Of a stretch of DNA of 64,000 nt, positions 3,207 through 35,417 are shown one piece after another. Made by a program: the position numbers and the translations under genes. Origin of the DNA: an uncultured Mycoplasmatota bacterium (lineage in GTDB: Bacteria; Bacillota_I; Bacilli_A; RF39; UBA660); the NCBI GenBank assembly GCA_947652325.1, contig CANTCQ010000001.1, forward strand, positions 134,725 through 198,724, in the 5' to 3' direction. Numbering within the stretch: the first letter of the stretch is position 1; the number at the start of each line of letters is the position of its first letter. The notes under the pieces were generated by a model. That model was not told where the DNA came from and did not search any database. It worked only from the letters and a program-made list of their open reading frames with translations.

Positions 3207-3214
3207 AAAAAAAA

Positions 3215-3291: not shown

Positions 3292-3294
3292 ATA

Positions 3295-3371
<77 letters not shown>

Positions 3372-3385
3372 ATATATATAAATAA

Positions 3386-3478: not shown

Positions 3479-3490
3479 AGCGACAAATTG

Positions 3491-3520
3491 ATTATAACAC
3501 AGTACTTTTTTCTATGTCAA
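3491..3520 (-). promoter_or_regulatory. sigmaA-type promoter for the Ser-fMet-Asp-Phe tRNA operon
   Basis: The minus strand reads TTGACA-N18-TATAAT with a TGt extended -10. It ends ~12 nt before the tRNA-Ser 5' end. Confidence 0.6.
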
Positions 3521-3561
3521 CCGCAAAAAATATCATTTTTTTGTATTTTAATAAAAAAGTC

Positions 3562-3590
3562 TTGATTATTTTATTTTTTAATATTATACT
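3562..3590 (+). promoter_or_regulatory. sigmaA-type promoter for tRNA-Leu
   Basis: TTGATT-N17-TATACT, ~33 nt upstream of the tRNA-Leu 5' end. Confidence 0.45.
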
Positions 3591-3623
3591 TAAGAAGTCT
3601 TATGTAATTAAGACAAGTGCCAT

Positions 3624-3712
3624 GCCTAAGTGGCGGAATAGGTAGACGCACAGGACTTAAAATCCTGCGGGTGTTAAAACCCGTGCCGGTTCAAGTCCGG
3701 CCTTGGGCACCA
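3624..3712 (+). tRNA. tRNA-Leu (TAA)
   Basis: GCCTAAGTGGCGGAATAGGTAGACGC...CT-TAA-AA, with a long variable arm, then ...GGTTCAAGTCCGGCCTTGGGCACCA. Confidence 0.95.
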
Positions 3713-11331: not shown

Positions 11332-11408
11332 GGGCGCTTAGCTCAGTTGGTTAGAGCACCTGCCTTACAAGCAGGGGGTCATAGGTTCGAGTCCTATAGC
11401 GCCCACCA
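11332..11408 (+). tRNA. tRNA-Val (TAC)
   Basis: GGGCGCTTAGCTCAGTTGGTTAGAGC...CT-TAC-AA...GGTTCGAGTCC...CCCACCA. Confidence 0.95.
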
Positions 11409-11420
11409 TTTATTTTTTTT

Positions 11421-11496
11421 GCCGACATAGCGTAATTGGTAGCGCAACTGACTTGTAATCAGTAGGTTGGGGGTTCGATTCCCTCTGTCGGCACCA
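11421..11496 (+). tRNA. tRNA-Thr (TGT)
   Basis: GCCGACATAGCGTAATTGGTAGCGC...CT-TGT-AA...GGTTCGATTCC...GGCACCA. Confidence 0.95.
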
Positions 11497-11504
11497 CTTA
11501 AATT

Positions 11505-11588
11505 GGAGGGATAGCGAAGTGGTCAAACGCGGCAGACTGTAAATCTGTTCCTTCGGGTTCCATGGTTCAAATCCATGTCCCTCCACCA
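11505..11588 (+). tRNA. tRNA-Tyr (GTA)
   Basis: GGAGGGATAGCGAAGTGGTCAAACGC...CT-GTA-AA, with a long variable arm, then ...GGTTCAAATCC...CCACCA. Confidence 0.95.
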
Positions 11589-11600
11589 TTTCTTAATTAT

Positions 11601-11676
11601 TGCCTCGTAGCCAAGTGGTAAGGCATCAGACTTTGACTCTGACATTCCGGTGGTTCGAACCCACCCGAGGCAGCCA
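11601..11676 (+). tRNA. tRNA-Gln (TTG)
   Basis: TGCCTCGTAGCCAAGTGGTAAGGC...CT-TTG-AC...GGTTCGAACCC...GGCAGCCA. Confidence 0.9.
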
Positions 11677-11687
11677 TTTTTAATTTT

Positions 11688-11763
11688 GATCCGCTAGCTC
11701 AGTTGGTAGAGCATTTGACTTTTAATCAAAGGGTCTTGGGTTCGAATCCCAAGCGGGTCACCA
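11688..11763 (+). tRNA. tRNA-Lys (TTT)
   Basis: GATCCGCTAGCTCAGTTGGTAGAGC...CT-TTT-AA...GGTTCGAATCC...GGTCACCA. Confidence 0.95.
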
Positions 11764-14709: not shown

Positions 14710-14786
14710 GCACCCATAGCTCAATTGGATAGAGCGCTAGACTACGGATCTAGAGGTTAGGGGTTCGACTCCCTTTGGGTGCACCA
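14710..14786 (+). tRNA. tRNA-Arg (ACG)
   Basis: GCACCCATAGCTCAATTGGATAGAGC...CT-ACG-GA...GGTTCGACTCC...GTGCACCA. Confidence 0.95.
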
Positions 14787-14799
14787 TTTAAATTTTTTG

Positions 14800-14827
14800 T
14801 AGCAATTTTAAAATTTGATGCTATAAT
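14800..14827 (+). promoter_or_regulatory. promoter of tRNA-Pro (extended -10)
   Basis: TAGCAA-N16-TGcTATAAT. It shares the block GCAATTTTAAAAT with the tRNA-Arg promoter. Confidence 0.5.
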
Positions 14828-14838
14828 ATAGTATGTAT

Positions 14839-14915
14839 CGGGAAGTGGCTCAACTTGGTAGAGCACTTGGTTTGGGACCAAGGGGTTGCAGGTTCAAATC
14901 CTGTCTTCCCGACCA
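14839..14915 (+). tRNA. tRNA-Pro (TGG)
   Basis: CGGGAAGTGGCTCAACTTGGTAGAGC...TT-TGG-GA...GGTTCAAATCC...CCCGACCA. Confidence 0.95.
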
Positions 14916-19704: not shown

Positions 19705-20976
19705 CTATTTGCATTTTTTTATTAAAATTTTTTGAACAAAAAAGTTATCAATAACACTCGTTTCTTTTGAAAATGTATCACTATATTTTATGATATTTTG
19801 GAATATATAAAGACCCATTCCTCTATTATCTCCTTTACTACTAAAGCCTTTTTCTTCCATTCTATCTAAAGCGATATGTTTAAAAGTGTTGGCAAGTAGA
19901 AACACAATTGTTTCTTTTTCTTTATAAAAATGCAAACTTATCATTTTTTCGTTACTTTCTAAACTCGCTTCAATTGCATTGTCTAAAATAATGCCTAAAA
20001 GGGTGTATAAATCGTTTTTTTCTTTGCTCGTTAGAAAATCATCTTTTATTTTGGCGATTTCTTCTGAGATATAAATCTCTACATCAATTTTTAATTCTTT
20101 CATTTGTAATAATTTAAAATTAATTAGTCCTTTTGCTCCAGCAATTGGAATATTTTTAAGTTCAGATAACCACCTGTAATGATTTACTACTTTTTCTTCT
20201 AAAAGAGTGTCGATATATTTTTGTAGTTCTTTATTTTTTTTATCTGTAAGACTTTTTATAATAAGTAATTTATTTTTATATTCATGAACAAAGCTTTTGT
20301 ATTCTGTTAAAAGACCTTCCGTGAATTCGGAATATTCTACCATTTTGTTATAATTTTTTTCTAAATCGTTATTTTTCTCTTTTTCATGAAACAAAATAAA
20401 AACTAAATTAATAATAATAATAAATAAAAATAAATTCATATATAAGTGTAAATTTGAATGAATTTGGTAATGTGTTAGTCGAATTGATGTCACTAAAAAA
20501 AGTCCTATGTTGTTTAAAATTATTTTTGAGAGTAAACTTTTATTTTTATAAATATAGTGGATATTGATAATTTCTTTAATATAATTTTGAAAGATAAGTA
20601 CTGCCAAAAAACTAAGAATGGTTGTACATTTATTTAAAAAAAATAAAGAAGGGATAGGGATATGTAAAATTGTTAGGGTGATGTAAAAAAGAAGTTCAAA
20701 AATAAAACGAATCAAATATATCGTAATGATAATGGGAAGAATGGGTTGATTGTTTTTTCTAAACTCAAAAAAAACAAAAAGAAAACTTAATAAAATATAA
20801 ATAGCAAAAGATGTGAGTGGCTCTGAGTAGGTAAAGTTTATCATATATAAAAAAGCAAAAATGAAGATTCTAATAAAGGATATTCCATATTTTTTCTTAT
20901 GTTTTATTAGTAGGTGTGTCGTTAGAAAAATATAGGAAAAAATCCATAATCCCATACTATAACTATTCCAGTTCAT
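19705..20976 (-). CDS. AgrC/ComD-type (HPK10) membrane sensor histidine kinase
   Basis: N-terminal ~200 aa holds six to seven hydrophobic helices. C-terminal GHKL ATPase has N-box 'LGIILDNAIEA' and G-box 'SSKGDNRGMGL'. It overlaps the LytTR regulator gene by 14 nt. Confidence 0.85.
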   Translation of the reverse strand: MNWNSYSMGLWIFSYIFLTTHLLIKHKKKYGISFIRIFIFAFLYMINFTYSEPLTSFAIYILLSFLFVFFEFRKNNQPILPIIITIYLIRFIFELLFYITLTILHIPIPSLFFLNKCTTILSFLAVLIFQNYIKEIINIHYIYKNKSLLSKIILNNIGLFLVTSIRLTHYQIHSNLHLYMNLFLFIIIINLVFILFHEKEKNNDLEKNYNKMVEYSEFTEGLLTEYKSFVHEYKNKLLIIKSLTDKKNKELQKYIDTLLEEKVVNHYRWLSELKNIPIAGAKGLINFKLLQMKELKIDVEIYISEEIAKIKDDFLTSKEKNDLYTLLGIILDNAIEASLESNEKMISLHFYKEKETIVFLLANTFKHIALDRMEEKGFSSKGDNRGMGLYIFQNIIKYSDTFSKETSVIDNFFVQKILIKKCK

Positions 20977-21706
20977 AATTATTTTCCTTTTTTAATTTTT
21001 CTTTTAAGTCTTTTTTCTTATTTCTGGAAAGTAAGTCAGTTTTATAATTTTGAAAATAAATGCAATTGTTTGTGAAGTCTACTTTTTCAATATTTTTAAG
21101 ATTTACAATACAACTTTGATGTGTTTTAAAAAAATCAGGATTTGATAATAGTTCTGTTTCAATTTTTGTAATACTTTGTTTGAGTTTATATGCTTTTTTA
21201 GGGGTGATAATCGAAGTATAATTATGATTTAGGTCTTTTTCAAAAAACAGAATATCATGATAGGGGATTTGATAAAGTTCATTATTATAAATAAATTTAA
21301 AGGATTTATGTCGCGAATGAATTCGTAAAGCAACTACAATAGCTTCTTCAATTTTATCTTCTACATAATCTTTTTTTGTAATAAAATCAAGCATTAAAAT
21401 TTTACTTGTAAATCCTTCTTCTTTAAAACATTCATGAGAAGTTATCATTATCATTTGACTTTCCCAGTCACCAGCATCTCTTATTTCTCTTGCTAAATCT
21501 AATCCAGATTTTCCCGGGACTTCCATATCCAAAAGAAATATATTTTTTCCTAGTAAATCATCTAATTTCTTTTTGGCTTCTTTGGTGTATTTGTCAATGA
21601 TTAGGATTTGGTATTTATCTTCTTTGTGGCCTATTATATTTAATATGGCGTGTTTATAGTGTTCTTGCCATTTTTTATCATCTTCATAAATTATAAAATT
21701 AATCAT
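20963..21706 (-). CDS. LytTR-family response regulator (AgrA-like)
   Basis: Receiver domain ('IFLLDMEVPGKSGLDLAREIR') plus a C-terminal LytTR DNA-binding domain ('ILFFEKD...HQSCIVNLKNIEKVD'). Confidence 0.9.
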   Translation of the reverse strand: MINFIIYEDDKKWQEHYKHAILNIIGHKEDKYQILIIDKYTKEAKKKLDDLLGKNIFLLDMEVPGKSGLDLAREIRDAGDWESQMIMITSHECFKEEGFTSKILMLDFITKKDYVEDKIEEAIVVALRIHSRHKSFKFIYNNELYQIPYHDILFFEKDLNHNYTSIITPKKAYKLKQSITKIETELLSNPDFFKTHQSCIVNLKNIEKVDFTNNCIYFQNYKTDLLSRNKKKDLKEKLKKENNYELE

Positions 21707-22959: not shown

Positions 22960-25230
22960 ATGAAACAAGTAAAACATAAAAAAACTTTAAAGAATATATT
23001 GGGACAAGCTAAAGTGATGCTTGCTACAGTAGGACTTACTGGTTCTTTGGTAATGTCTGGTTGTGGATGTGGTGAAAAAAGAACTGAAGATATTTTTGCT
23101 CCAAGTTTAGAAGATTTAATTGATAAAGAAAATGCAAAACCTTTAGTAGAAAATGAAAAACTAATAGAAGAACAACAAACGAACAAAGAAAAAAAACAAC
23201 AAGATTTAAAAGAAGATATCAAAAGTAACAATACCATAGATTTATCAAATTATACGGGATATAGTTTAGATGAAGCTTTAGAGTCTATTGGATTAAAGCC
23301 TACACCAGAGCTTAAAGCAGAATTAGCAGCTTCTCTTGGAATTGATCCATACCTTAAAACAGCAGAACAAAATCTACTTATTTTACAAAGTTTAGGTGCT
23401 ACCATAAATGTTGGTGGTGTTGAACAACAAGTTATTATTAATGAAAATGGAGAGTTTATAGTTGTTCCAGTTGGGGAAGAAAAAAAGAAACAAGAAGAAA
23501 ATGAAATTGCTTCTAATAAAATCGAAACTCCAGAACGTCAAGACCCAGAAAAACTAGAAGATGACGTAAAACCTGTTATTGGTGGTAATGATAACAACGA
23601 TTCTGAAAATCAAAAACCAGGTAATAATGAAGATAAAGATAAAAATGATTCTGAAAATCAAAAACCAGGTAACAATGAAGATAAAGATAAAAATGATTCT
23701 GAAAATCAAAAACCAGGTAATGATGATACGAAACCGAACCCTGAAGACCATGAACATAAATATACCGAAGAAGTTCCAGGTACAAGAATAGCAAAGGCAA
23801 ATGGAGATGGAACACACAACGTATATGCTGATATGAAATGCCCAGAAGATGGAAGTATTCAAAAACAAGTATTAATAGAAAAAAATGTAGTGTGTAAACC
23901 TGGAACAGAAACGTTTACTGAAATAGTAAATGGAGTTGAATACGAATTTGAAATATGTGTAGATGGATGTGGAACAAAAGTTAATTATCGTGTAAAGAAA
24001 CCAGTTCATGACCATAAATATACTGAAGAAGTTCCAGGTACAAGAATAGTAAAGGCAAATGGAGATGGAACACACAACGTATATGCTGATATGAAATGCC
24101 CAGAAGATGGAAGTATTCAAAAACAAGTATTAATAGAAAAAAATGTAGTGTGTAAACCTGGAACAGAAACGTTTACTGAAATAGTAAATGGAGTTGAATA
24201 CGAATTTGAAATATGTGTAGATGGATGTGGAACAAAAGTTAATTATCGTGTAAAGAAACCAGACCATAACCATAAATATACTGAAGAAGTTCCAGGTACA
24301 AGAATAGCAAAGGCAAATGGAGATGGAACACACAACGTATATGCTGATATGAAATGCCCAGAAGATGGAAGTATTCAAAAACAAGTATTAATAGAAAAAA
24401 ATGTAGTGTGTAAACCTGGAACAGAAACGTTTACTGAAATAGTAAATGGAGTTGAATACGAATTTGAAATATGTGTAGATGGATGTGGAACAAAAGTTAA
24501 TTATCGTGTAAAGAAACCAGTTCATGACCATAAATATACTGAAGAAGTTCCAGGTACAAGAATAGTAAAGGCAAATGGAGATGGAACACACAACGTATAT
24601 GCTGATATGAAATGTCCAGAAGATGGAGATATTCAAAAACAAGTTGTTATTATTGAATCAGAACTTTGCGTATCTGATGGTAACATACATACAGTAACTA
24701 TAGGAGATGAAGTGTGGGAACAGGAGTTTTGTCCTCACTGTGGGTATTTAATTAGTTCTAAATTAGTACATAAACATGATTTTGTTTCTCAACCAATTGA
24801 AGGATGTATTGGTTCTTCCAAATTTTCATGCGGTTGTGGGGCAGAAAAAGATATAAATGTTGTTCCTCATGTTCCAGGTGCAGAAGAAATCACACAAATT
24901 GGAGATATGCTTGCTTATAGAATTGTTTGTATTAATTGTGGTTGGACGATTGAATCTGGTGTACGTCCAATTGATACAAATGATGAATTAGAAGCAAAAT
25001 GTGAGGCAATTATTCAACAATATAAAGATACTGAAGATAGCCAAACGAATACGATTGAGTCAAGTGATGGAAATGGGGACTCAATTCCAACAGGTGAAGT
25101 AATACAGATAGACGATGGTCAAGTGAATATGGAAGAAACAAGTAGTGGTAGTGAAGGTGGAGAGCCAGATGCTGAAGATTTAGAAGAAAGTGCTACTCTA
25201 TCTCGTATACTTTCTAGACCTAGGATTTAA
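22960..25230 (+). CDS. repeat-containing Cys/His-rich lipoprotein
   Basis: Signal peptide plus lipobox 'LTGSLVMSG-C'. Contains 3 x 16-aa 'NDSENQKPGNNEDKDK' and ~3.5 x 86-aa units with four Cys and an HxH motif each. The C-terminal part has 'CPHCG', 'SCGCG' and 'CINCG', then an acidic tail. GGAGA precedes ATG 22960; the ORF opens at 22930. Confidence 0.8.
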   Translation: MKQVKHKKTLKNILGQAKVMLATVGLTGSLVMSGCGCGEKRTEDIFAPSLEDLIDKENAKPLVENEKLIEEQQTNKEKKQQDLKEDIKSNNTIDLSNYTGYSLDEALESIGLKPTPELKAELAASLGIDPYLKTAEQNLLILQSLGATINVGGVEQQVIINENGEFIVVPVGEEKKKQEENEIASNKIETPERQDPEKLEDDVKPVIGGNDNNDSENQKPGNNEDKDKNDSENQKPGNNEDKDKNDSENQKPGNDDTKPNPEDHEHKYTEEVPGTRIAKANGDGTHNVYADMKCPEDGSIQKQVLIEKNVVCKPGTETFTEIVNGVEYEFEICVDGCGTKVNYRVKKPVHDHKYTEEVPGTRIVKANGDGTHNVYADMKCPEDGSIQKQVLIEKNVVCKPGTETFTEIVNGVEYEFEICVDGCGTKVNYRVKKPDHNHKYTEEVPGTRIAKANGDGTHNVYADMKCPEDGSIQKQVLIEKNVVCKPGTETFTEIVNGVEYEFEICVDGCGTKVNYRVKKPVHDHKYTEEVPGTRIVKANGDGTHNVYADMKCPEDGDIQKQVVIIESELCVSDGNIHTVTIGDEVWEQEFCPHCGYLISSKLVHKHDFVSQPIEGCIGSSKFSCGCGAEKDINVVPHVPGAEEITQIGDMLAYRIVCINCGWTIESGVRPIDTNDELEAKCEAIIQQYKDTEDSQTNTIESSDGNGDSIPTGEVIQIDDGQVNMEETSSGSEGGEPDAEDLEESATLSRILSRPRI
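23596..23727 (+). repeat. 48-bp in-frame tandem repeat (2.7 copies)
   Basis: Units start at 23596, 23644 and 23692 and differ by 1-2 nt. Confidence 0.9.
23749..24645 (+). repeat. 258-bp in-frame tandem repeat (~3.5 near-identical copies)
   Basis: The landmark CATAAATAT recurs at 23755, 24013, 24271 and 24529, an exact 258-bp period. Only a handful of substitutions separate the units. Confidence 0.95.
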
Positions 25231-25261: not shown

Positions 25262-25900
25262 ATGAAAGTGGTGAAAGAAATGAAAAAGGGAAATAAATGG
25301 TATCATTCATTTAGTAATTGGCTTATCATTATTGCCTGTGTAATACTAGTTCCTATGTTGGTAATGAATTTAAGTATTATGTTTCAAGCTAAAACAAAAA
25401 AAGATGTTGTTCCAAGTATATTTGGAATAAAACCTTTCATCGTTTTATCTGGTTCAATGGAAACAGAAATACATAAAGGAGATATGATATTAACCAAAAT
25501 AGTTGACCCTGCATCGTTAGGAGTAGATGATGTTATTGCTTTTCGAGATGCAGAAGGAACTGTTACTACGCACCGGGTTATTGATGTTGTGGTAGAAAAT
25601 GGAGAAACATTTTTTATTACAAAAGGTGATAACAATAGTACCCAAGATAAAAATTTGGTAGAACTTAGTGACGTAGAAGGTTTATATATAGGTAGAATTC
25701 CAGGAATTGGTTCTATGATGGATAGCTTATCAGAACCAACAACAATTATTATTGTTGTTTTAGGAATTACCATGATATTTGTAATTGGTTTCTCTATTTC
25801 TAATAAGAAACAAAGAGAAATTGAAAGAAAAGAATTCTTAGAATACAAAAAAAGAAAAGAATTGGAAGAAAAGAATTCTGAAAATAAAAGTAAGTCTTAG
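25262..25900 (+). CDS. sipW: SipW-type (archaeal/ER-type, S26B) signal peptidase I, copy 1
   Basis: N-terminal TM, 'LSGSMETEIHKGD' (catalytic Ser), 'TTHRVID' (catalytic His), 'ITKGDNNSTQD', a second TM and a basic tail. Confidence 0.85.
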   Translation: MKVVKEMKKGNKWYHSFSNWLIIIACVILVPMLVMNLSIMFQAKTKKDVVPSIFGIKPFIVLSGSMETEIHKGDMILTKIVDPASLGVDDVIAFRDAEGTVTTHRVIDVVVENGETFFITKGDNNSTQDKNLVELSDVEGLYIGRIPGIGSMMDSLSEPTTIIIVVLGITMIFVIGFSISNKKQREIERKEFLEYKKRKELEEKNSENKSKS

Positions 25901-26030
25901 AAAGACTTAAATGAATATGCGTAAACTGCCCTTTGGGCGTTTACATAGATTTGGAAGTACATAACTTCCTGTCGCATAACAGAAAAGTTATGCATTATAA
26001 AGAAGAAATTTCGAGGGGAGGTGAAAAAGA

Positions 26031-26720
26031 ATGAAAAAGAAAATGATGGTACTAGGTGGTTTATTAATGGCTGTTGCAATTACAGGTTATTCAGTAAGTG
26101 GAACTTATGCTAAATATATCTCAGCTTTAGATACTATTACTGATAGTGCTAGAGTTGCTAAATTTAGTTTTAAGTTACAAGATAAAGACGGTGCTGATTG
26201 GACAGATACTACAACAGTTGATTTATTTAAAACTGCTTATAATAATAATGCAATTCAAAGTGCTGATACTGATAAAGTTATAGGTCCAGGAGCAACTGGT
26301 GAATATACTTTTACTATTAATGGTACAGCAGAAACTGCTTATACAGTAAAAATTGCAGCAGAAGCTACAGACAAAGATGGAAATGCTATTAATTCAGATT
26401 TAGCAGACCAAATTAAGTTTACTTTAACTAAAAATGGTACAGCTGTTAGCGGTGTAGAAAAAGTTTCTTTAGCTACTTTAGTTGCTGAATTAAATAAAAC
26501 TGATGGAAGTGCAATCGTTGCTGCCAATACAGCATTAAATGACACTTACAAAATTAATTGGGAGTGGGCATTTGATGATGCATCTGCTACAAAAGATGAA
26601 GTAACTAATGCTAATAACCAAAAAGATACAGGATTAGGTTCAAAAGAAACATTAGATACAATTAAATTAACTATCGATGTTACAGTTGCACAATCTGCAA
26701 CTGCTCCAACAATGCCTTAA
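26031..26720 (+). CDS. TasA/camelysin-like secreted protein, putative major fibre subunit
   Basis: Strong GGGGAGGTG RBS. Signal 'MKKKMMVLGGLLMAVAITGYSVSGTYAKYIS' resembles the SipW-cognate class. 'IGPGATGEYTFTI', 'WEWAFD', and a C-terminal 'LTIDVTVAQ'. Confidence 0.65.
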   Translation: MKKKMMVLGGLLMAVAITGYSVSGTYAKYISALDTITDSARVAKFSFKLQDKDGADWTDTTTVDLFKTAYNNNAIQSADTDKVIGPGATGEYTFTINGTAETAYTVKIAAEATDKDGNAINSDLADQIKFTLTKNGTAVSGVEKVSLATLVAELNKTDGSAIVAANTALNDTYKINWEWAFDDASATKDEVTNANNQKDTGLGSKETLDTIKLTIDVTVAQSATAPTMP

Positions 26721-26735
26721 TCAGTATTAAAAAGA

Positions 26736-26788
26736 GGAAGTTAATTTAACTTCCAAATAAGCCTATGAAAATAGTCGTAGGTTTATTT
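26736..26788 (+). terminator. two consecutive hairpins after the subunit gene (partial terminator or attenuator)
   Basis: GGAAGTT-AATTT-AACTTCC, then AAATAAGCCTA-N12-TAGGTTTATTT followed by T-rich sequence. Confidence 0.45.
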
Positions 26789-26846
26789 GAAAATTAAATT
26801 GATTTGTAAAAATAAATTATCCAATAGTAAAAGGAGGGGTACAGAG

Positions 26847-29800
26847 ATGAAGAATTTTTTGAATGAGTTTGCTAGTAAAAAAGATGTTACTTCTGATGAG
26901 AAAAGAAAAAGAAGAATTATTCTTTATATTATCATTATCATCATTATTCTTTTATTAATTACGAGTTGTAGCTGTACATCTAAGTTTTTTGGGAAAATTG
27001 GAGATTTATTTCGCGGAGAAAGCAATTATACAATTGACAATACACAAGATAATCAAGAAATAATAAAAAATAAAGAATTGCAATTTGATACAGATAATAC
27101 TGAGATGTCTCTTAGTGATTCAAGTACTAAAATTAGTTTTTCTTATAAAAATATTAATCCTGGAGGATTTACTTGTTCTACTAGTGATGCTGAAGTTGCT
27201 ACTTGTTATGTTGCCAATAATTATGTAGTGGTAATTCCCAAAAAAATTGGAGATATTACAGTTTATTTACAAACGACTACGAATGGTAAAACATATGAAG
27301 CAAGTACAAAAGTTAGTATTAAAGATATAAATAGAGCAATTGAGTTAGAAAGCAATAGTGGTACATTTAATTTAAAGAAAATGCAAGAATTAAACGTAGT
27401 TTATCGACTTGTTGGATTAGTAGGAAATGTTACTGTGTCTTCTAGTGATGAAAAAATAGCGATTGCTACTGCAAATGATGGTATTTTAAGTATAAAAGGA
27501 CTAAAAGTAGGAGAAGTAATTTTTACATTATCCCTTACTTATAATGACCGAGTTTATACTAATACATACACTGTAAAAGTAATAAACGGTATAAATACAG
27601 GAAATTCTACTAATACAAAACCAGGAGATAGTTCAAATAATATAGAAAAACCAAGTGAAATACCAAATCCAGGAGAAGATAAACCGCCAGTTGTTTTAGA
27701 TGGTGATAGTACTTTAAGAAGTTTAACAACTAATAAAGGAACACTTTTATTTGATAAAAATACTTATTCTTATTATATTGGACTTAGTGCTTGGAACTGG
27801 AAAATTTCTTTAAAAGCACAACCTACAAGTACAAAGGCAAAACTTTCTTATACTTATAATGGTGTAACCGTTTCTTCCTTAGAAAAACTAAAATTAAATA
27901 CGGGAGATAATAAAGTAGTAATTACAGTAACAGCTGAGAATGGTTCTACAAGTATATATGAAGTGGTTGTAAATAAGGCAAAGTCTAGTCAAAATTATTT
28001 GAAAAGTCTTACTACTTCTTTAGGAACTTTGGAACCAAAGTTTAATAAAAATATACTTAGTTATGATATTCGTGTAGGGTATGACAAAGAAAGTTTAGAT
28101 TTAATAGCTAAACCAAAAAGTAAAAAAGCTGCAATTACTTATATTTATAATGGAAAAATTGTAGCAGATTTAAATCATCTTTCTTTAAATACAGGTGATA
28201 ATTTTGTTCAAATTATTGTAACGGCTGAGAATGGAGTTTCTAGAACATATTCAGTTGTTATTAATCGTGAAGTAGCCCCTGGTGTCAAAGATAGTAATAG
28301 TTTATTAAAAAATTTAACAATTTCTAATGGAACTTTAGCATTTGATCCTTATGTGAATCGTTATATGATAGGTGTTTCTACTAATACTTCTGTTGTTTCT
28401 CTAAAAGCAATACCAAGTAGTAAAAAAGCAAGTGTAACTTATACTTTTAATAATATGCCAGTAGAGAATTTAGATAATTTAAATCTACGAATTGGAGATA
28501 ATACAGTTGTTGTTACAGTTATAGCAGAAGATGGAAGTAAAACCGATTATACAGTAGTTATTAATCGGGCAACACCAAGTAAAGAGAATTCCTTGAAAGA
28601 ATTAACAACAAATAAAGGAATACTTACTCCAATATTTGATGAAAATACGCTGGCTTATGAAATTTATGTTGATAGAAAAGAAGAAAACATTACTTTAACA
28701 GCAAGTCTGGCCAATCAAAATGCTTCTATGTTTTATACTTTAGATGGAACAAGTGTAAATAGTTTAACCAATCTTCCTTTAAAACCTGGTAAAAATGTGG
28801 TTAACATTCATGTTGTAAGCGAAGAGGGCATAACTAGAACATATGAAGTTGTAATTTATAGAGAAGTAGACACTTCAAAAAGTAAAGATAGTGCATTATC
28901 AAAAATAGAGGTTTTAAATAATGTAGGTTTACTATCTCCACAATTTAATAAAGATATAACAGAATATGTAGTTGATGTAAAAGCAGACATAGAAAAAATT
29001 TCTTTCGAAGCAGCGCTAAATGATGAAAAAGCAAGTGGAATGCAATTTATGTATAATGGAAAAAAAGTAACTTCTATTTTAGATTTGCCTCTTGTTACAG
29101 GAAATCAAAATGTACTTGTAATTACAGGTATAGCAGAAGATGGTGTTACACAAACTGATTATAAAATCATTATTAATAAAGCGTCTGATCCAGATAAGTC
29201 TAATAATAATCTTTTATCTAATTTAGAAATTAGCAATGTGAATAAGGGAATACTTACCCCAGCATTTTCTCCAAAAATAGATGAGTATAAAGTTTTAGTT
29301 TCAGCAAGTGATAATAAAATAGATCTAAAAGGAACACCTGCAAATAATAAAGCAGAGTTATCTTATACTTATACAAATAAAGATGGAGAAGAAGTAACAG
29401 TAGAAAATGGAACAAATATTTTCTTAAGGCCTGGTGACAATAAAATCGTAATTACGGTTGTAGCGGAAGATGGAACTCCAAAAAATTATACAGTGACAGT
29501 TTACAAACCTGTATACACTGTTGTTGTAAATGTTTTAGATACTTATTATGTAGAAGAAGCACCATTTCAAGTTTCTTATATAGTAAAAGATGAAATGGGT
29601 CAAGCGACAACAGATTATAAAATAGAAGATATTACAACAAATTTATCTTTATTTAATGACCTATTTAGTTTAGACACAACAGTTAAAGGAATTATTACTT
29701 TAACTCCAAAAACAGATAGATTACAAGAATTAGTGGATCAAAATGTTGATATAACGGTTACGTATAATCAAGACAGAAAAGATACCAAAACATTACATTT

Positions 29801-31037
29801 TGCTACACGTCCTGGCTATTATTTAAAAACACAAAATGAAATATATACAGTTACTTTGAATAAAGATAAACATTCTTTTTGGGATATTGTTTTAAATACC
29901 AACTTTTTTGTCAAAGATGTTAAATCAGTACCAGTTGCAAATGGAATACATTTATATACAGAAGGAAATGAAAATGTTTCCATTGATATCGTGGATATTA
30001 CGGAAGGTACTAAAATTATAGATTTAGTTTCAGGAGATTTATCATCTGTTAATTCTTTAACCATTCGTGCTAATTTAAAAAATGTAGGAACGGCTAAAGT
30101 ACATGTTAAAGGAATATATTATGGAAAAATAATTGAATTTGATATTTTAATTGCGATTACAGAAAAATATTCAGTTACGATTTCTGCAGGAGAAGGTTTC
30201 TTTGATGCGTTACTAACAGAATATAAATATGAATATGAACGTGGTACAAAAATAGATTTGGCAAATTATATTCCTTATAAAGTAGATGAAACAGAAAATT
30301 GTAAATACTTTACTCTAGATTATTATCAAGATAAAGAAGGAAACAAATACCAACAAACGGATGTTGTAGAAGTAACAAAAGAACTTGTTTTAACGGCTGT
30401 TTACAAACAAACTTCTGAAATTGTAGATATAAAAGATAAAGGAAAATATTATTTAGAAAATTTAGATATATTTAATAATGAAAGATTTTTAAATAATGAA
30501 AAAGTTATTCATCCTGGAGTAAGTGGAGAACATAGAATAACACTTACAAATAATTTGGCAAGTAAAATCATAATTACTGGAATGACGTTAGAAGAGGATA
30601 CTATTTGTATTCAAGAAGGAAATATTAAGGGTTGTATTAATATGGAATATGCTCTTAAAAGAACGGATTTAAGTACTACTGATATTTATTATTATCCAGG
30701 AAGTGATAAAAGTGGATATACTATTTTAAATCGAGATGCCAATCGAAATGAAGTGAACAATTATCGTGATTTAGATAAACAATATACCCTTCGAACTTTA
30801 AAATTTAAAGATGAAGGTAAAGAAAATATTGAGTTATCTAAAGGAGAAACAGTTGAATTATTTCTACTATGGAGATGGTCTTTTGAAGGTGTCGATGATC
30901 AGTTAGATACAAAGATTGGTGAATATGTTGAAAAACAATTTGCAGAAAAAAAGATTAATGAAATGTATCATTTGTTGATTGGTTTTGATTATGAAATAGA
31001 AAATACATATTGTAAAAAACAAGTAGATACGAATTAA
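26847..31037 (+). CDS. giant surface protein: N-terminal TM/signal, 2 Big_2-like domains, 6 cadherin-like beta-sandwich repeats, C-terminal TasA-like domain
   Basis: AGGAGGGG RBS before ATG 26847. 'ILYIIIIIIILLLITSCSCTSKFF' anchor. Six ~100-aa repeats of the type 'L+sLttn.GtL.P.F..n...Y.i.V......i.l.a.p....a......g.......l.l..G.N.v.I.V.AEdG....Y.v.I'. The C-terminal ~200 aa has 'IHPGVSGEHRITL' and 'WRWSFEG'. Confidence 0.85.
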   Translation: MKNFLNEFASKKDVTSDEKRKRRIILYIIIIIIILLLITSCSCTSKFFGKIGDLFRGESNYTIDNTQDNQEIIKNKELQFDTDNTEMSLSDSSTKISFSYKNINPGGFTCSTSDAEVATCYVANNYVVVIPKKIGDITVYLQTTTNGKTYEASTKVSIKDINRAIELESNSGTFNLKKMQELNVVYRLVGLVGNVTVSSSDEKIAIATANDGILSIKGLKVGEVIFTLSLTYNDRVYTNTYTVKVINGINTGNSTNTKPGDSSNNIEKPSEIPNPGEDKPPVVLDGDSTLRSLTTNKGTLLFDKNTYSYYIGLSAWNWKISLKAQPTSTKAKLSYTYNGVTVSSLEKLKLNTGDNKVVITVTAENGSTSIYEVVVNKAKSSQNYLKSLTTSLGTLEPKFNKNILSYDIRVGYDKESLDLIAKPKSKKAAITYIYNGKIVADLNHLSLNTGDNFVQIIVTAENGVSRTYSVVINREVAPGVKDSNSLLKNLTISNGTLAFDPYVNRYMIGVSTNTSVVSLKAIPSSKKASVTYTFNNMPVENLDNLNLRIGDNTVVVTVIAEDGSKTDYTVVINRATPSKENSLKELTTNKGILTPIFDENTLAYEIYVDRKEENITLTASLANQNASMFYTLDGTSVNSLTNLPLKPGKNVVNIHVVSEEGITRTYEVVIYREVDTSKSKDSALSKIEVLNNVGLLSPQFNKDITEYVVDVKADIEKISFEAALNDEKASGMQFMYNGKKVTSILDLPLVTGNQNVLVITGIAEDGVTQTDYKIIINKASDPDKSNNNLLSNLEISNVNKGILTPAFSPKIDEYKVLVSASDNKIDLKGTPANNKAELSYTYTNKDGEEVTVENGTNIFLRPGDNKIVITVVAEDGTPKNYTVTVYKPVYTVVVNVLDTYYVEEAPFQVSYIVKDEMGQATTDYKIEDITTNLSLFNDLFSLDTTVKGIITLTPKTDRLQELVDQNVDITVTYNQDRKDTKTLHFATRPGYYLKTQNEIYTVTLNKDKHSFWDIVLNTNFFVKDVKSVPVANGIHLYTEGNENVSIDIVDITEGTKIIDLVSGDLSSVNSLTIRANLKNVGTAKVHVKGIYYGKIIEFDILIAITEKYSVTISAGEGFFDALLTEYKYEYERGTKIDLANYIPYKVDETENCKYFTLDYYQDKEGNKYQQTDVVEVTKELVLTAVYKQTSEIVDIKDKGKYYLENLDIFNNERFLNNEKVIHPGVSGEHRITLTNNLASKIIITGMTLEEDTICIQEGNIKGCINMEYALKRTDLSTTDIYYYPGSDKSGYTILNRDANRNEVNNYRDLDKQYTLRTLKFKDEGKENIELSKGETVELFLLWRWSFEGVDDQLDTKIGEYVEKQFAEKKINEMYHLLIGFDYEIENTYCKKQVDTN

Positions 31038-31049
31038 AGGGGTTAAAAA

Positions 31050-31793
31050 ATGAAGGTTATAAAAAGGATATTTTTTATCATTGCAACAGTAGTATTGTTC
31101 TTTCTTTTCTTATTTAACTTTTATACATTTTTTTGTATAAAAATAGCAAAACAAGACTTAGCTACCATTAATGGATATGCTTTATTAGAAGTTGTATCGG
31201 GGTCAATGGAACCTATTATTCATATCGGAGATATGATTGTAATTGATACAAAAACTACTCATTATCAAGAAAACGATATTGTTACATTTTATGATGTGAA
31301 TGGCTCTTTTGTAACTCACAGAATTCTTTCTATAAAAGGGGAAGACATGATTACAAAAGGAGATAATAACAATAGTGAAGATGAATCCATTCCACTAAAA
31401 AATATAGTTGGAAAATATGTTTTTAAAGTAAATGGCCTTGGAAAAATACTTGCTTCTTTTAAAAGTCCCTTCGTGATGATTATGATTTTAATAATTGGTT
31501 TTATGGTTTGTTTCTTAATTAGCACAGATAAAGAGGGAAAACCCATTTTAACACAAGAAGAAAAAGAGTTTCAAGAATTTATAAAAAATAAAGAAAAGAA
31601 ATTAAACGAAAGTAAAAATGATGTAAAAATAAAACAGACTAATGTGAAAAATGTAGATGAAGAAGATAAAAGAGTTGCGAAAAAAGTACAAGAATCAAAA
31701 ACAAGTCTTAAGACAAAAAGTTTTGTACCAAAAAAGAAACTAAATAAAATGTCTACTAAAAAAAGAAAAAATAATAAAAAGAAAAGTAGGTGA
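31050..31793 (+). CDS. sipW: SipW-type signal peptidase I, copy 2, with long Lys-rich tail
   Basis: 'VVSGSMEPIIHIGD', 'VTHRILS', 'ITKGDNNNSED', a second TM, and a ~90-aa highly basic C-terminal extension. Confidence 0.85.
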   Translation: MKVIKRIFFIIATVVLFFLFLFNFYTFFCIKIAKQDLATINGYALLEVVSGSMEPIIHIGDMIVIDTKTTHYQENDIVTFYDVNGSFVTHRILSIKGEDMITKGDNNNSEDESIPLKNIVGKYVFKVNGLGKILASFKSPFVMIMILIIGFMVCFLISTDKEGKPILTQEEKEFQEFIKNKEKKLNESKNDVKIKQTNVKNVDEEDKRVAKKVQESKTSLKTKSFVPKKKLNKMSTKKRKNNKKKSR

Positions 31794-32428
31794 ATATCGT
31801 GAATGAATTATTACATAGTAAAAGATTTAGGGCAAATTTATATAAATGGCTGTGTATGTATGTAGGGGTTATGTTATTACTTACTACTGTAATAACTTAT
31901 TCAAGATATATGACCAAATTGCAAATTTCTGATGATGTAAGAACTGCTAAATTTGATGTAAAAGTAAAAGGAATAGAACAAATGTGTCCAGGGACTTCTT
32001 CTACTTGTAATAGTGGTGCGTATTTGGTAGGTAATCAAATGAATTATTATTTTACAGTTGACCCTAAAGAATTGGAAGTACGTGCAGAAGTTTCTAGATT
32101 GATTATTCAAATAAAAAATAATTTTCGAATTCAAAAAATTGAAAATGTAAAAATAAGTACCAATGTGGATGGTGTTCCAATTGAAGAAATAACAAAAACA
32201 ATTTGTGATTCTACTACATCTAATACTTGTTTAGGTACAGAAAGTAAAGCTACGGGAACCTATACTTATTCATTAAAAGAACCAGTTTTATTAGACCTTT
32301 CGAATAAAGAGGCCATAAATTATAAAATAACCCTCTTATATGTTGGAGATGCAATAACAAATCCCGAAGGAATCTATATTGATAAAATGATAACCGTTGA
32401 TTATACAGTACAACAAAAAACAAAATAA
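31790..32428 (+). CDS. TasA-like minor secreted protein (212 aa)
   Basis: GTG start overlapping the sipW-2 stop (GTGA). N-terminus 'VGVMLLLTTVITYSRYMTKLQISDDVRTAKFDVKV' aligns with the 26031 protein ('GTYAKYISALDTITDSARVAKFSFKL'). Ends 'ITVDYTVQQ'. Confidence 0.65.
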   Translation: MNIVNELLHSKRFRANLYKWLCMYVGVMLLLTTVITYSRYMTKLQISDDVRTAKFDVKVKGIEQMCPGTSSTCNSGAYLVGNQMNYYFTVDPKELEVRAEVSRLIIQIKNNFRIQKIENVKISTNVDGVPIEEITKTICDSTTSNTCLGTESKATGTYTYSLKEPVLLDLSNKEAINYKITLLYVGDAITNPEGIYIDKMITVDYTVQQKTK

Positions 32429-32443
32429 GAAAGGAGGAGTTCC

Positions 32444-34594
32444 ATGAAAAAAGAAAAAAAATTCTACAAAAAAGTAGAATATCATCGAAAAATTGGTCAA
32501 GCTATTGCAAGCACATTATTCGTACTCGGAATAGCAGCGATGTCGGTTTTTCCAGAGTCTCACTCTAAATATATTACGAGTGGTCAGGTGGAGTTGGGAA
32601 GTGCTACTTTGTATCCAAAAGAACAAGGTACATTGACAAAAGATAATTTTAAATTATTAGGTTCCAAAGATACCGCACCGCCACCGGGTACGAATTATAA
32701 TTCAGATGAAACATATGCATTTATAAAAGTTTCTTTTACTAAAAATTCTGTAGATGAAATTATTGGAGATAGTCATGATTATGTGGTAAAAACTCCAACT
32801 TGTAATATAGTATATGTGAATGGTACAAAGATAAGTGGAAGTGTTAAAGAATATACAATTCCTTCTATAGGAAAAGAAAATCAAGTAATAATGAAGTGTA
32901 GTGTTAAAAACAATACACAAGGAAATAATTTAAAAGCTTCCATTCAAATTGAGGAAACTATTAAGGATACTACTTTTACTTATAAGACGGGTGAATTTAT
33001 AGAATCAATTGATTCCTATAAAGATAAATATTCATCGGATATTCCAGTACCAGAGCCCGAAATAGTAAAAACTAAAGAATATATTAGTATTCCAACTGTT
33101 TTTATAAATGAAGATTCTACATATAGTACAGAATTTGTTAGTTGGTTGGATATGATAGTAGATGATGCGAGTTATGATGAAACCGTAAAACAAAATATTA
33201 AAAGTTATATTCGAAATTCTTATAGTAATTTGGCTTCTCTTAAGAGTGACCAAAGTTTACCAAGTATCAAGTTTTATCATCCAAATACAGAAGGAAATAA
33301 AGAAGATGTATATAAACTAGAAATTATTAGAGAAAATTTAGTAGGATATGCTAAAACATATCAAAATCATATGGCAAATCCAAATCTCATGTATTTTTCG
33401 AGTATGGATTCAAAAATCGTTCAAGATGCTTTTATTTATTATTTAACACATTATAAATATCCAATAAAAGATGATGCTCAATTAGTTTTAGATTATGTAG
33501 ATTTAATGAGCGAACATAAAGGGCTATCTTATTTAATGGAAACGGATGAGCTTGGAAATTTAAAATATGAAATTCCAGGAATAAAATATGAGCCTGAGGG
33601 ACAGAAAGTTACATTAGAAGATACTTTATTGATTTTTGCTTATACTAAAATTAATTCAATTATAAAGTTATCTTATGATAATCCTTATGTAGCACTTACA
33701 GGATATGATGAAATGTTGAGAAAAATTTTCAAATTTGAAAAGTATGAAATTGATATTCTTGAAGGTAATGATATCTTAAATCTTATTCTTATGAAACCTA
33801 CAGAAAAATTTAATAAATTCTTTGTTTATAATGCTGTTGATACAGAAAATTCAAATAGTAGTTATTTGCTTGTTCATATGTATTCTGATGATTTGTCTTC
33901 CTTATTTATTGAAGTTACTAAGGTACCATTTGAGAAGACAACGAATACCTTAACTCTTACAGTAGATATTACAAATTACAAAACAACAGAGATTACAGAT
34001 TTAACTTCTGCTGTAGAAAGTTTATTTAATGATAAAAAAGTTGAATTTACAATACAAGATGAAAGTGATAAAAAGACCATTGTTTATACAGTTACAGATA
34101 AGGTAACTGGTGATGAGATAGTTGATAATACAGATTCTATTTTAGATTTGAATGAAAATGTTTTATCTAACACAAATGTTCAACCACCAAAGGTTTTGGA
34201 TGGAGCTAATACAAATAAAAATGATAGCAATGGTACAAATACTACTAAAAAAGTGGATAAGAGTGAAGAAAATTTCCAAACTGTAAATTCTGATAATAAA
34301 ACAGAACAAGAAGATAAAAAAGTAAAAGAAGAAAATTCTGTTAAAATTTCAAATAGTGAAACAGATAATGTAGTTAATGCGAATGTTTCTAATAAAATGA
34401 ATGTATCTAATGATAATCAAGAAGAAACTTTAGATTTAGATACCAAAGTAGAAAATGTAAATACTGTTAATACAACTTCTCAAATAAATATTGGAGCTCC
34501 TCCAGTGATAGGGGATAATGTAACTCCTGATATAGGAATAGAAGAGGTTGCTAGCGGATTTATAAATTTCATTGAACCTGTAGCAACAGGATAA
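32444..34594 (+). CDS. large secreted protein (716 aa) with the same signal motif and an N/T-rich low-complexity tail
   Basis: AGGAGG RBS. 'LFVLGIAAMSVFPESHSKYITSG' signal-like N-terminus. No LPXTG sorting signal. Confidence 0.7.
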   Translation: MKKEKKFYKKVEYHRKIGQAIASTLFVLGIAAMSVFPESHSKYITSGQVELGSATLYPKEQGTLTKDNFKLLGSKDTAPPPGTNYNSDETYAFIKVSFTKNSVDEIIGDSHDYVVKTPTCNIVYVNGTKISGSVKEYTIPSIGKENQVIMKCSVKNNTQGNNLKASIQIEETIKDTTFTYKTGEFIESIDSYKDKYSSDIPVPEPEIVKTKEYISIPTVFINEDSTYSTEFVSWLDMIVDDASYDETVKQNIKSYIRNSYSNLASLKSDQSLPSIKFYHPNTEGNKEDVYKLEIIRENLVGYAKTYQNHMANPNLMYFSSMDSKIVQDAFIYYLTHYKYPIKDDAQLVLDYVDLMSEHKGLSYLMETDELGNLKYEIPGIKYEPEGQKVTLEDTLLIFAYTKINSIIKLSYDNPYVALTGYDEMLRKIFKFEKYEIDILEGNDILNLILMKPTEKFNKFFVYNAVDTENSNSSYLLVHMYSDDLSSLFIEVTKVPFEKTTNTLTLTVDITNYKTTEITDLTSAVESLFNDKKVEFTIQDESDKKTIVYTVTDKVTGDEIVDNTDSILDLNENVLSNTNVQPPKVLDGANTNKNDSNGTNTTKKVDKSEENFQTVNSDNKTEQEDKKVKEENSVKISNSETDNVVNANVSNKMNVSNDNQEETLDLDTKVENVNTVNTTSQINIGAPPVIGDNVTPDIGIEEVASGFINFIEPVATG

Positions 34595-34793
34595 AATTTA
34601 TTTTGAGTTTCAGTATTTTTAAAAATTTATTTTAGTACCGGTTAAAATAAATAGTTATGAGCTCGGTTTGAAAGATATAAGAAACTTAGAATTTTTAAAT
34701 ATAATTGTTATGATGCATTTAACAAAAATAAGAGTAGGTAGGAACAACCTACTTTTATTTTTGTTTAAATACAAAAAAATACTTGTTTTTTAT

Positions 34794-34822
34794 TTGACAA
34801 TTTGTAAACTATTGAGTAGAAT
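34794..34822 (+). promoter_or_regulatory. sigmaA-type promoter
   Basis: TTGACA-N17-TAGAAT, ~30 nt upstream of the GAGGGGG RBS of the next gene. Confidence 0.55.
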
Positions 34823-34853
34823 AATAAACGTTTTTATAGAGGGGGTGTTTTTT

Positions 34854-35417
34854 ATGAAAATTAAAAATATTCGGAAAATAGACGCAAAAGGTGCTAAAAA
34901 TAATTTACGATTTAAAAAAAGACGTTTGGAGATTTTTAAAGCAGGACAGAAAAGTAGTTTTATATTATTTTTAGCTACATTTAGTGCTACTACTATTCAA
35001 ATTATTGGAAAAAATTATCTTGATGGTATTTTATTAAGTGGTTTATCTGGTTTTTCTTTTTACTCATTAGCTAATTTTTCTCGAAAACTAGTAAATGTTA
35101 TTTTGGAAAACATACAAGAATATCCAGAATTACAAAATAAACTGAAAAGGATATTAAAACATCGTGATAGAAGTTTTATTACTTTTTTAATTGCTTATCC
35201 TAGTTTTTTAGGTAAATTTTTAGAAGGAAATTATTCGACAACTGAGAATGTGTGGATTGGTTTACTTGGAGGAATATCTATTTTGACTTGTCTTTCTTCT
35301 AGTGTTTTGACTGTTCTTTTTGATGAATATGGAAAAGAACAAAATAACATCTTGAAATCAGAATTAGATATTATTGATTTAGATACGGAAGAAGGAGAAT
35401 TAAAGTTATTACGTTAA
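34854..35417 (+). CDS. hypothetical membrane protein (187 aa)
   Basis: GAGGGGG RBS before ATG 34854; the ORF track opens at TTG 34668, upstream of the promoter. Several hydrophobic helices and no recognisable motif. Confidence 0.55.
   Translation: MKIKNIRKIDAKGAKNNLRFKKRRLEIFKAGQKSSFILFLATFSATTIQIIGKNYLDGILLSGLSGFSFYSLANFSRKLVNVILENIQEYPELQNKLKRILKHRDRSFITFLIAYPSFLGKFLEGNYSTTENVWIGLLGGISILTCLSSSVLTVLFDEYGKEQNNILKSELDIIDLDTEEGELKLLR

Follow-up and report, generated by a model that had tools for sequence, protein, structure and literature searches.

Six consecutive genes at 25262-34594 on the + strand of a 64,000-nucleotide stretch of DNA from an uncultured Mycoplasmatota bacterium (279-kb metagenomic contig CANTCQ010000001.1; the whole stretch is referred to here as the window) probably encode a fibre of the TasA superfamily that is assembled by donor-strand exchange, in which protein A would form the shaft, the giant protein G would occupy the acceptor end and protein C, with or without protein B, the donor end. 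The set is completed by two signal peptidases, P1 and P2. The locus was first singled out in a reading of the nucleotide sequence and its open reading frames (ORFs), hereafter the original prediction, which described six co-oriented, tightly spaced genes encoding two SipW-type peptidases and a composite fibre. All six ORFs lie where they were reported, in the order P1-A-G-P2-B-C:

25262-25900, + strand: P1, SipW-type (archaeal/endoplasmic reticulum-type) signal peptidase I with two transmembrane (TM) segments
26031-26720, + strand: A, 229 amino acids, TasA-like by predicted fold
26847-31037, + strand: G, giant protein of 1396 amino acids
31050-31793, + strand: P2, signal peptidase I of the SipW type (two TM segments, lysine-rich tail)
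31790-32428, + strand: B, 212 amino acids, a divergent paralogue of A whose GTG start overlaps the P2 stop
32444-34594, + strand: C, 716 amino acids with an N-terminal membrane segment, predicted to be secreted

Conservation of the locus

A motif scan covering one genome per species identified relatives of the locus in 224 genomes. From these, 80 loci were fetched, and synteny was assessed by iterative searches on the ORFs of 84 loci. The order P1-A-G-P2-B-C is intact in 55 of the 84, most of the remainder being interrupted by contig ends, and since it recurs in different genomic neighbourhoods (the flanking genes differ between loci) it cannot be put down to chance. The original prediction had proposed to check whether the six genes recur together in relatives, and in this it was borne out. 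Nearly all of the fetched carriers are metagenome-assembled genomes (MAGs) of uncultured gut bacteria labelled Bacilli, 'Tenericutes' or Mollicutes, with some Oscillospiraceae, Ruminococcus and Acutalibacteraceae, and their sources are mouse, rabbit and human. In MAGs labelled Clostridia the locus takes a short form, P1-A-A'-P2-B, in which A' corresponds to G reduced to a membrane segment and an A-like core.

A dedicated, co-located signal peptidase I is frequent, though not universal, in the TasA superfamily; the window and 55 full-length loci each have two. Among all window ORFs of at least 120 amino acids there is no sortase, type IV pilus, flagellar or secretion-ATPase gene, as had been claimed, and no protein of the locus carries LPXTG followed by a hydrophobic tail at its C-terminus. 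The locus lacks both the pilin-specific sortase and the LPXTG sorting signals that define sortase-assembled Gram-positive pili.

The predicted major subunit A

Protein A has no match in Pfam or NCBIfam. A word-indexed search returned at least 114 clusters of homologues, none of them named and none with a Pfam domain, and an exhaustive profile search enlarged the family to 7,450 clusters at 50% identity with E <= 1e-3, 1,594 of these at E <= 1e-30. The original prediction, which called A TasA/camelysin-like, had proposed that its structure be modelled as a monomer. An AlphaFold2 model from a 60-sequence alignment is a beta-sandwich (predicted local distance difference test, pLDDT, 76.8), and when this was compared with the PDB using Foldseek, the sole match with E <= 1e-3 was the cryo-EM structure of the TasA fibre, 8aur (E 1.7e-5, probability 1.0). 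Crystal structures of TasA (5of1 and 5of2) figure among the matches as well, and the remaining weak ones are mostly donor-strand-complemented pilins. By this model A has the TasA-like beta-sandwich or jelly-roll core of the superfamily, at modest TM-scores. One further PDB match, TLP-1b (9ikk), is irrelevant, its name standing for Tsinghua Lotus Pond and not for 'TasA-like protein'.

A begins with a predicted signal of 27 residues. The monomer model leaves residues 20-34, on either side of this cut and beyond it, without ordered structure, as would be expected of a donor strand:

26097-26123, + strand: predicted cleavage site of A, SGTYA/KYIS (a slash marks the cut here and below)
26112-26171, + strand: putative donor segment of A, KYISALDTITDSARVAKFSF

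Mature A is acidic, with an isoelectric point (pI) of 4.4 and 15% D+E. Among its roughly 12 invariant positions are K28 (the first mature residue), E101 and D199, at 26112, 26331 and 26625 of the window; by analogy, these recall the Lys/Glu/Asn-Asp isopeptide triads of BsaA and Gram-positive pilins.

The giant protein G

The start of G is almost certainly the ATG at 26847, which has a ribosome-binding site (AAAGGAGGGG) and gives the 1396 amino acids of the gene call in the source assembly; a TTG at 26787 was set aside in its favour. The protein is made up as follows:

26955-27011, + strand: N-terminal TM segment, lipobox and SipW-like site, LITSCSCTS/KFFGKIGDLF
~27130-27585, + strand: two Big_2-like domains
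27717-29507, + strand: six Pfam Cadherin-like repeats (PF12733)
between the Cadherin-like repeats and the C-terminal core, + strand: further beta-rich region
30411-31034, + strand: C-terminal TasA/A-like core, without the donor motif of A

It is the C-terminal module that ties G to A. The last ~200 residues of G are matched by the A-family profile, including its (A/H)PG..G, W.W.F and DT..G motifs, and hhalign, run on alignments from 56 loci, aligns A with this module over 169 columns (96.7%, E 4e-10). Missing from the module is the conserved N-terminal KY.S..D.ARVAKW of A, in whose place there is a variable linker. A word-indexed search with the C-terminal domain of G returned only itself. Just ahead of the module, at ~30390-30410, G homologues carry a near-invariant L[YT]A[IV]Y. 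This motif is aligned by hhalign to GTYAKY of A, and may be what is left of an A-like precursor that became joined to the end of the repeats.

The repeats had been described as two Big_2-like and six cadherin-like domains. The latter are secure (195.6 bits, E 1.6e-58, above the gathering score); Big_2 is below threshold in the window copy, and the homologous region is matched in 34 of 44 homologues (best E 1.7e-15). The number of cadherin-like copies ranges from 0 to 7 across species and the length of G from 290 to 1696 amino acids. The Big_2-like region is also matched in 21 of the 44 homologues by Pfam T2SS-T3SS_pil_N, the N-terminal region of a pilus formation protein (best E 5e-7).

Not mentioned in the original prediction is a conserved lipobox in G, [LI]-T-S-C, whose Cys, at -3 from the SipW-like site, is kept in 44 of 46 homologues. 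This near-invariant Cys stands 2-4 residues before the S/K-F site and the conserved GKIGDLF peptide (26955-27011). Judged by these motifs, the N-terminus of G might possibly be lipid-anchored, cleaved by signal peptidase, or first anchored and then released; G is probably anchored to the membrane through a lipid.

Proteins B and C and the shared cleavage-type motif

B was predicted to be TasA-like. It has no match in Pfam or NCBIfam and is homologous to A over its full length (hhalign 95.5%, E 1.5e-8, 176 columns), which makes it a paralogue of A. The cytoplasmic n-region of B, LLHSKRFRxNLxKW (residues 7-20, 31808-31849), has several positions conserved at 90% or above in 45 species, far more than a plain signal peptide needs. 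C follows B in 56 loci; a word-indexed search with C returned itself and one relative. Its secretion, claimed in the original prediction, accords with its N-terminal membrane segment and a conserved cleavage-type motif. The notion that C is itself an A-like protein was rejected, as hhalign aligns the signal region only, with a probability below 20%.

31889-31915, + strand: cleavage-type motif of B, VITYS/RYMT
32552-32578, + strand: cleavage-type motif of C, PESHS/KYIT; C ends in a low-complexity tail

A predicted cleavage motif, x-x-[AS]/K-[YF], is common to A, B, C and G, and is near-invariant after the membrane segment in each class (46-55 homologues per class), consistent with the claim that the locus encodes at least four candidate peptidase substrates:

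A: YSVSGTYA/KY[TIV]S, with T-Y-A-K-Y in 55/55 homologues
B: TTVITYS/[KR]YIS, with T-Y-S-[KR]-Y in 55/55 homologues
C: YP.[TS].S/KY[IV], with S at -1 in 41/48 and K-Y conserved after it
G: [LI]TSC(SC)TS/KF[FW]GKIGDLF, with S at -1 in 41/46

The cut predicted in A by analogy, T-Y-A/K-Y, places Y at mature position 2 in all 55 homologues. At -1, A has Ala and the other three proteins have Ser, a split that suggests two classes of substrate for the two peptidases.

The signal peptidases P1 and P2

Both peptidases belong to the archaeal-type signal peptidase I class, TIGR02228, with 91.4 bits for P1 and 82.6 bits for P2 against a curated cut-off of 51.85, and P2 also matches Peptidase_S24 (E 2e-7). 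They have a catalytic Ser (SGSM), His rather than Lys as the general base, and a GDN Asp box:

25448-25483, 25568-25579 and 25622-25636, + strand: SGSME, THRV and KGDNN motifs of P1
31197-31232, 31314-31325 and 31356-31370, + strand: SGSME, THRI and KGDNN motifs of P2

The class and the motifs quoted in the original prediction therefore stand, but both proteins fall short of the Bacillus SipW equivalog NF046067 (P1 104.5 bits, P2 77.6 bits, cut-off 190); by their profile scores they are SipW-type by class and not SipW orthologues. In 56 loci, P1 and P2 form two clean clades, the nearest neighbour being of the same class in 112 of 112 sequences and two-way clustering dividing the sequences 56/56, with SGSME, THR[IV] and GDNN kept at 80% or above in both. 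As the same split is found in eight of ten short-form Clostridia loci, the duplication must be old and both copies have been maintained. A third, shorter peptidase gene (175-195 amino acids) follows C in one related locus (L001, 18829-19356) and in about ten others; the L001 copy, the one checked, is a bacterial-type Peptidase_S26, and the window has no equivalent.

Hairpins and transcript structure

Three structures mark the transcript:

25921-25944, + strand: GC-rich hairpin in the P1-A spacer, inside a larger structure at 25905-25958
26736-26788, + strand: two adjacent hairpins directly after A (-24 kcal/mol, z -7.0)
34718-34768, + strand: strong, bidirectional terminator-like hairpin closing the operon, from a terminator scan

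Folding of 25895-26030 gives -34 kcal/mol (z -3.5) and that of 34590-34780 a z of -4.9. Of 53 loci, 98% have a strong hairpin after A (median -25 kcal/mol, z -7.8); the share is 64% after P1 (z <= -2.5), 25% after C and 8% after B, and the G-P2-B-C genes are tightly packed, with median ORF-to-ORF gaps of 7-15 nucleotides. The hairpins after A are likely to be an attenuator or an mRNA-stabilising element that sets a high ratio of A to minor subunits. Together with the packing of G-P2-B-C, they fit what is expected of one abundant subunit with low-abundance partners, and mark A as the major one. The original prediction of major and minor subunits with a built-in adhesin is strengthened both by this pattern and by the donor-less A-like core in which G ends.

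A scan for sigma-70 promoters was disregarded, as it found fewer sites than in shuffled sequence in this AT-rich DNA. Beyond C lies a 249 amino acid ORF with a TTG start (34668-35417). Since both the terminator and, at 34794-34822, a promoter close to consensus fall within it, the 5' part is unlikely to be coding and any real gene would start further downstream.

An upstream gene for a predicted lipoprotein and the flanking DNA

The count of six genes probably needs amending, for a large lipoprotein gene, here called UP, lies immediately upstream of P1:

22930-25230, + strand: UP, predicted lipoprotein of 766 amino acids, ending 32 nucleotides before P1, with lipobox LVMSGC at 23047-23070

UP has a conserved N-terminal domain followed by 3.5 near-identical Cys/His modules of 86 amino acids (HxHKYTEE...C..C). 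These correspond to a 258-nucleotide tandem repeat (23749-24644, 3.5 copies, 97% identical) whose copy number varies widely among UP homologues, pointing to fast gain and loss of repeats in a surface lipoprotein. Homologues of UP, many with lipoboxes, lie directly upstream of P1 in 22 loci, and an ORF of at least 300 amino acids on the + strand, often lipobox-bearing, abuts P1 in 40 of the 60 loci with enough upstream sequence. UP is probably a seventh, fast-evolving member of the locus.

An agr-like pair, made up of a histidine kinase of the GHKL type (HATPase_c_5) and a response regulator of the LytTR type, is encoded on the - strand at 19705-21706, about 1.2 kb upstream of UP. As a conserved member of the system it was rejected, the neighbours being unrelated in the two related loci whose called genes were read (L001 and L003); probably it either regulates locally or has no connection with the locus. 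Clusters of tRNA genes (the window has 12 tRNAs in all) adjoin a large serine recombinase with Resolvase, Recombinase and Zn_ribbon_recom domains; recombinase and clusters together take in 700-2550, 3134-3709, 11332-11760 and 14710-14912 and may mark the edge of an integrated element.

A model for the fibre and its alternatives

The published TasA, TapA, BsaA, AbpA and AbpX systems polymerise when an N-terminal strand, freed by signal cleavage, enters the next subunit. Work on TasA (F29) and on the donor strands of AbpX-type proteins has emphasised an aromatic residue at mature position 2, TapA or AbpB, as an accessory protein that can only donate a strand, has been proposed as the fibre nucleator, and the presence of multiple paralogues in one operon has been noted in the literature as a hint of heteropolymers. 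For the proteins described here we infer cleavage, polymerisation, polarity, anchoring and the pairing of peptidases with substrates by analogy. On that footing, the locus would be a self-contained extracellular fibre system with no need of sortase or chaperone-usher machinery. All four structural proteins would be exported by Sec and cut by P1 or P2 at x-x-[AS]/K-[YF], and the N-terminus so exposed would have an aromatic second residue (compare A/AFND in TasA). The abundant A would then polymerise head-to-tail, the freed N-terminal strand of one subunit entering the beta-sandwich of its neighbour. P1 would probably serve A, with its Ala at -1, and P2 would probably serve G, B and C, with Ser in that position.

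The ends of such a fibre would be set by which parts of A each minor protein retains. Since G has the A-like core but not the A-type donor segment, it would be a strand acceptor only, and thus the terminal subunit at one end. B, an A paralogue with a donor segment, could be a donor-plus-core adaptor at the other end, and C, with a donor-type N-terminus and no recognisable A-like core, a donor-only end piece acting as a TapA-like nucleator or as a tip. Turning to the cell surface, the host encodes cell-wall functions (alanine racemase, PBP5, VanY, an LCP enzyme, LD-carboxypeptidase, EzrA and an M23 peptidase) and the sporulation proteins SpoVAC and SpoVAD, and on this gene content is a walled, spore-forming member of the Bacillota. 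A long stalk makes sense in a host with a cell wall. As the rod of G would be long enough to cross a Gram-positive wall and its N-terminus carries a lipobox, a membrane-anchored base is the most economical reading: the lipobox and the long Big_2/cadherin-like rod would make up an anchored stalk that presents the base of the fibre beyond the wall.

A number of findings weigh against this model, several of them concerning sequence. Of 69 A-family members sampled, not one matches Peptidase_M73 (PF12389), even at E 0.1; A and B have no match to the NCBIfam TasA model NF046066 at E 0.1; and TIGR04088, TIGR04089 and TIGR04090 match neither full-length A, B, C or G at E 0.1 nor any of their N-termini at E <= 10, a threshold at which NF046066 does not match these N-termini either. 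TasA itself, as a positive control, scores 513.8 bits with NF046066 and 38 bits with TIGR04088 (cut-off 19), and also matches TIGR04090 and TIGR04089. Alignment of the A profile with TasA by hhalign has a probability of 0.3% and covers only the last strand ('TATQ' against 'FEATQ'; the TasA query was verified against 8aur, to which it is identical over residues 28-261), and when PDB sequences were searched with profiles of A, B, C and the C-terminal part of G, no match rose above chance level. The profile searches proposed in the original prediction therefore went against it where the small proteins are concerned: A is TasA-like in fold and is not a member of the Peptidase_M73, NCBIfam TasA, BsaA or TIGR04088 families. 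In the absence of a match at this level, homology to TasA cannot be claimed from sequence. A is a new family, and what links it to TasA is its fold, its context and parallels between motifs.

The structural comparisons and the minor proteins call for caution in their turn. TM-scores in the Foldseek searches are low (0.39 for the A model against 8aur, and 0.32), and the model of the G C-terminus, whose best match is again the TasA fibre (E 6e-3), has a pLDDT of just 62 and inherits a bias from the A-family alignment on which it was built; its support is weak. For C, neither the window copy nor 39 homologues has a Pfam, NCBIfam or PDB sequence match, and its fold is not recognisable. At the N-terminus of G, the readings as a lipobox and as a signal peptidase site conflict, and the conserved KFFGKIGDLF could itself be a donor strand, in which case G might donate as well as accept. 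Short-form loci do not keep the Ala/Ser split at -1, and the carriers are all uncultured.

Three other explanations deserve comparison with the stalk-based fibre. In one, which we think unlikely, the geometry is reversed, so that G is a distal tip adhesin resembling FimH or PapG, freed at TS/KF, and C or UP is the cell-proximal anchor or nucleator. The succession of adhesin repeats and a donor-less acceptor core in G repeats the layout of chaperone-usher tip adhesins, the weak Foldseek matches for both models (A and the G C-terminus) include the pilin domain of PapG, and the SipW-like S/K-F site would provide for release. Cadherin-like repeats that vary from none to seven between species are what one might see in a host-facing adhesin, and TapA, the cell-associated anchor and nucleator of B. 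subtilis, is donor-only like C. A near-invariant lipobox Cys is, however, hard to explain if the N-terminus is simply removed, the C-terminus of C has no TM segment, LPXTG or other anchor, and the short-form equivalents of G, consisting of a TM segment and the core, resemble an anchor and not an adhesin.

It is also conceivable, if improbable, that no polymer is made and that these are monomeric secreted or surface proteins (a coat, an adhesin complex or spore-associated proteins) in need of specialised signal peptidases. Fold similarity alone does not prove polymerisation, TasA is also a stable monomer, no protein of the locus belongs at sequence level to any characterised fibre family and, for spore-associated proteins, the host does have SpoVAC and SpoVAD. 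What such a view struggles to accommodate is the occurrence together of a donor-less A-like core on a giant, a paralogue of A and a donor-type N-terminus on an unrelated protein, all of which are hard to explain without strand complementation; moreover, a hairpin pattern in which one gene is high and the rest are not is typical of filament operons, and the N-terminal segment of A is disordered in the monomer model. The last explanation, that A and B are camelysin-type surface metalloproteases and the locus a protease-maturation system, owes its existence to the historical naming of the TasA/camelysin family as Peptidase_M73, the label also used in the original prediction. We reject it as wholly implausible on the failure of all 69 A-family members to match PF12389; there is, besides, no metalloprotease motif among the invariant positions, and even for CalY/camelysin the classification as a peptidase is considered a probable error.

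Significance

Despite its thousands of clusters, the major-subunit family is covered by no model in Pfam or NCBIfam and is unnamed in public records. If the anchored-stalk model is right, the locus represents a distinct TasA-superfamily architecture in which a FimH-like acceptor-only subunit is mounted on a long stalk and accompanied by an old peptidase duplication, and it would offer a concrete system for studying polarity, nucleation, termination and anchoring in chaperone-free donor-strand fibres. It would also supply an annotation rule for more than 200 species, combining the SVSGT[YF]A/KY signal class with P1-A-G-P2-B-C synteny.

More tentatively, and with rather more doubt than confidence, we raise the possibility that such loci constitute an unrecognised, widespread class of Gram-positive heteropolymeric fibre, built by donor-strand exchange without sortase, usher or ATPase. 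In fibres of this class, the lipid-anchored G stalk would be the terminal acceptor, the major subunit would form the shaft, and the donor-only protein would cap or nucleate the other end, with P1 (for the shaft) and P2 (for the minor parts) gating the order of assembly or the stoichiometry, and possibly the release of the stalk. Were this so, the fibre would serve uncultured gut Bacilli and some Clostridia as a main organelle of adhesion or of the matrix.

Comparison with known systems

As in tapA-sipW-tasA of B. subtilis and sipW-tasA/calY of B. cereus, the gene of a dedicated archaeal-type signal peptidase adjoins those of its substrates, which here are candidates. A resembles TasA in its predicted jelly-roll fold and terminal 'ATQ' strand ([ST]A.Q in A, FEATQ in TasA), and would do so in its 27-residue signal and aromatic residue at mature position 2 if cut as predicted; the predicted cleavage site parallels GGGTWA/AFND of TasA by position. 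C or B may be likened to TapA, as a sub-stoichiometric accessory protein with a donor-type N-terminus, and neither system has a sortase or usher. Unlike B. subtilis, with its one peptidase, the present locus has two paralogues in separate old clades and four candidate substrates, together with a giant that joins an acceptor-type core to ~1,150 residues of Big_2/cadherin-like repeats. A further difference is that A goes undetected by the TasA, Peptidase_M73 and TIGR04088 models and the peptidases remain below the Bacillus SipW equivalog cut-off. The carriers, in contrast to those of the Bacillus systems, are uncultured gut Bacilli and Clostridia.

In the sipW-bsaA-bsaB-bsaC locus of C. perfringens, too, genes for a major TasA-like subunit, a paralogue and a large non-TasA protein come after that of a SipW-type peptidase, and for BsaA a signal of residues 1-27, the length predicted in A, and a donor strand of residues 28-38 have been modelled. 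There the peptidase is single, BsaC is a vWA protein whereas C has no known domain, and there is no giant acceptor-core fusion. TIGR04090 is not matched here and the N-E-K isopeptide triad of BsaA is not evident, though K28, E101 and D199 are invariant in A.

With the AbpA/AbpB, AbpX and Tafi loci it shares a co-located TIGR02228-type signal peptidase I and, as proposed here, major and minor subunits, a predicted tip and a membrane anchor. A is an acidic major subunit (pI ~4, ~15% D/E) like AbpX-type matrix proteins and, as in these loci, has an amphipathic N-terminal donor strand (putative in this case) with an aromatic residue at position 2. Unlike in these loci, mature position 4 is Ser and not acidic, and there is no sequence match to any solved member. 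AbpX-linked signal peptidases have ten TM helices and a DUF5305 partner, P1 and P2 two TM segments and no DUF5305; bacterial AbpX loci have SLH or LPXTG anchors and sortases, where the anchor predicted here is a lipobox or TM segment.

Chaperone-usher pili of the Fim/Pap type have no evolutionary relationship to the locus, which has no chaperone, usher or outer membrane to work with, and the resemblance is one of functional analogy. Both would be heteropolymers formed by donor-strand exchange (for the present locus, a proposal) with adaptor subunits. G, like FimH and PapG, is a two-part subunit with a pilin-type domain that lacks a donor strand, and a hairpin after the major-subunit gene sets stoichiometry in Fim/Pap, as it may do here.

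Since 2022, publications have described TasA-superfamily loci of several subunits that include a dedicated TIGR02228-type signal peptidase I along with minor subunits, tips and anchors. The suggestion that the fibre is possibly undescribed consequently does not hold for its kind but does for this cassette, of which full-text literature searches found no description. What is new is a large unannotated subunit family with a distinct signal class, two anciently split and conserved peptidase paralogues, an acceptor-type core fused to a giant stalk or adhesin, and a conserved, probably hairpin-based control of stoichiometry.

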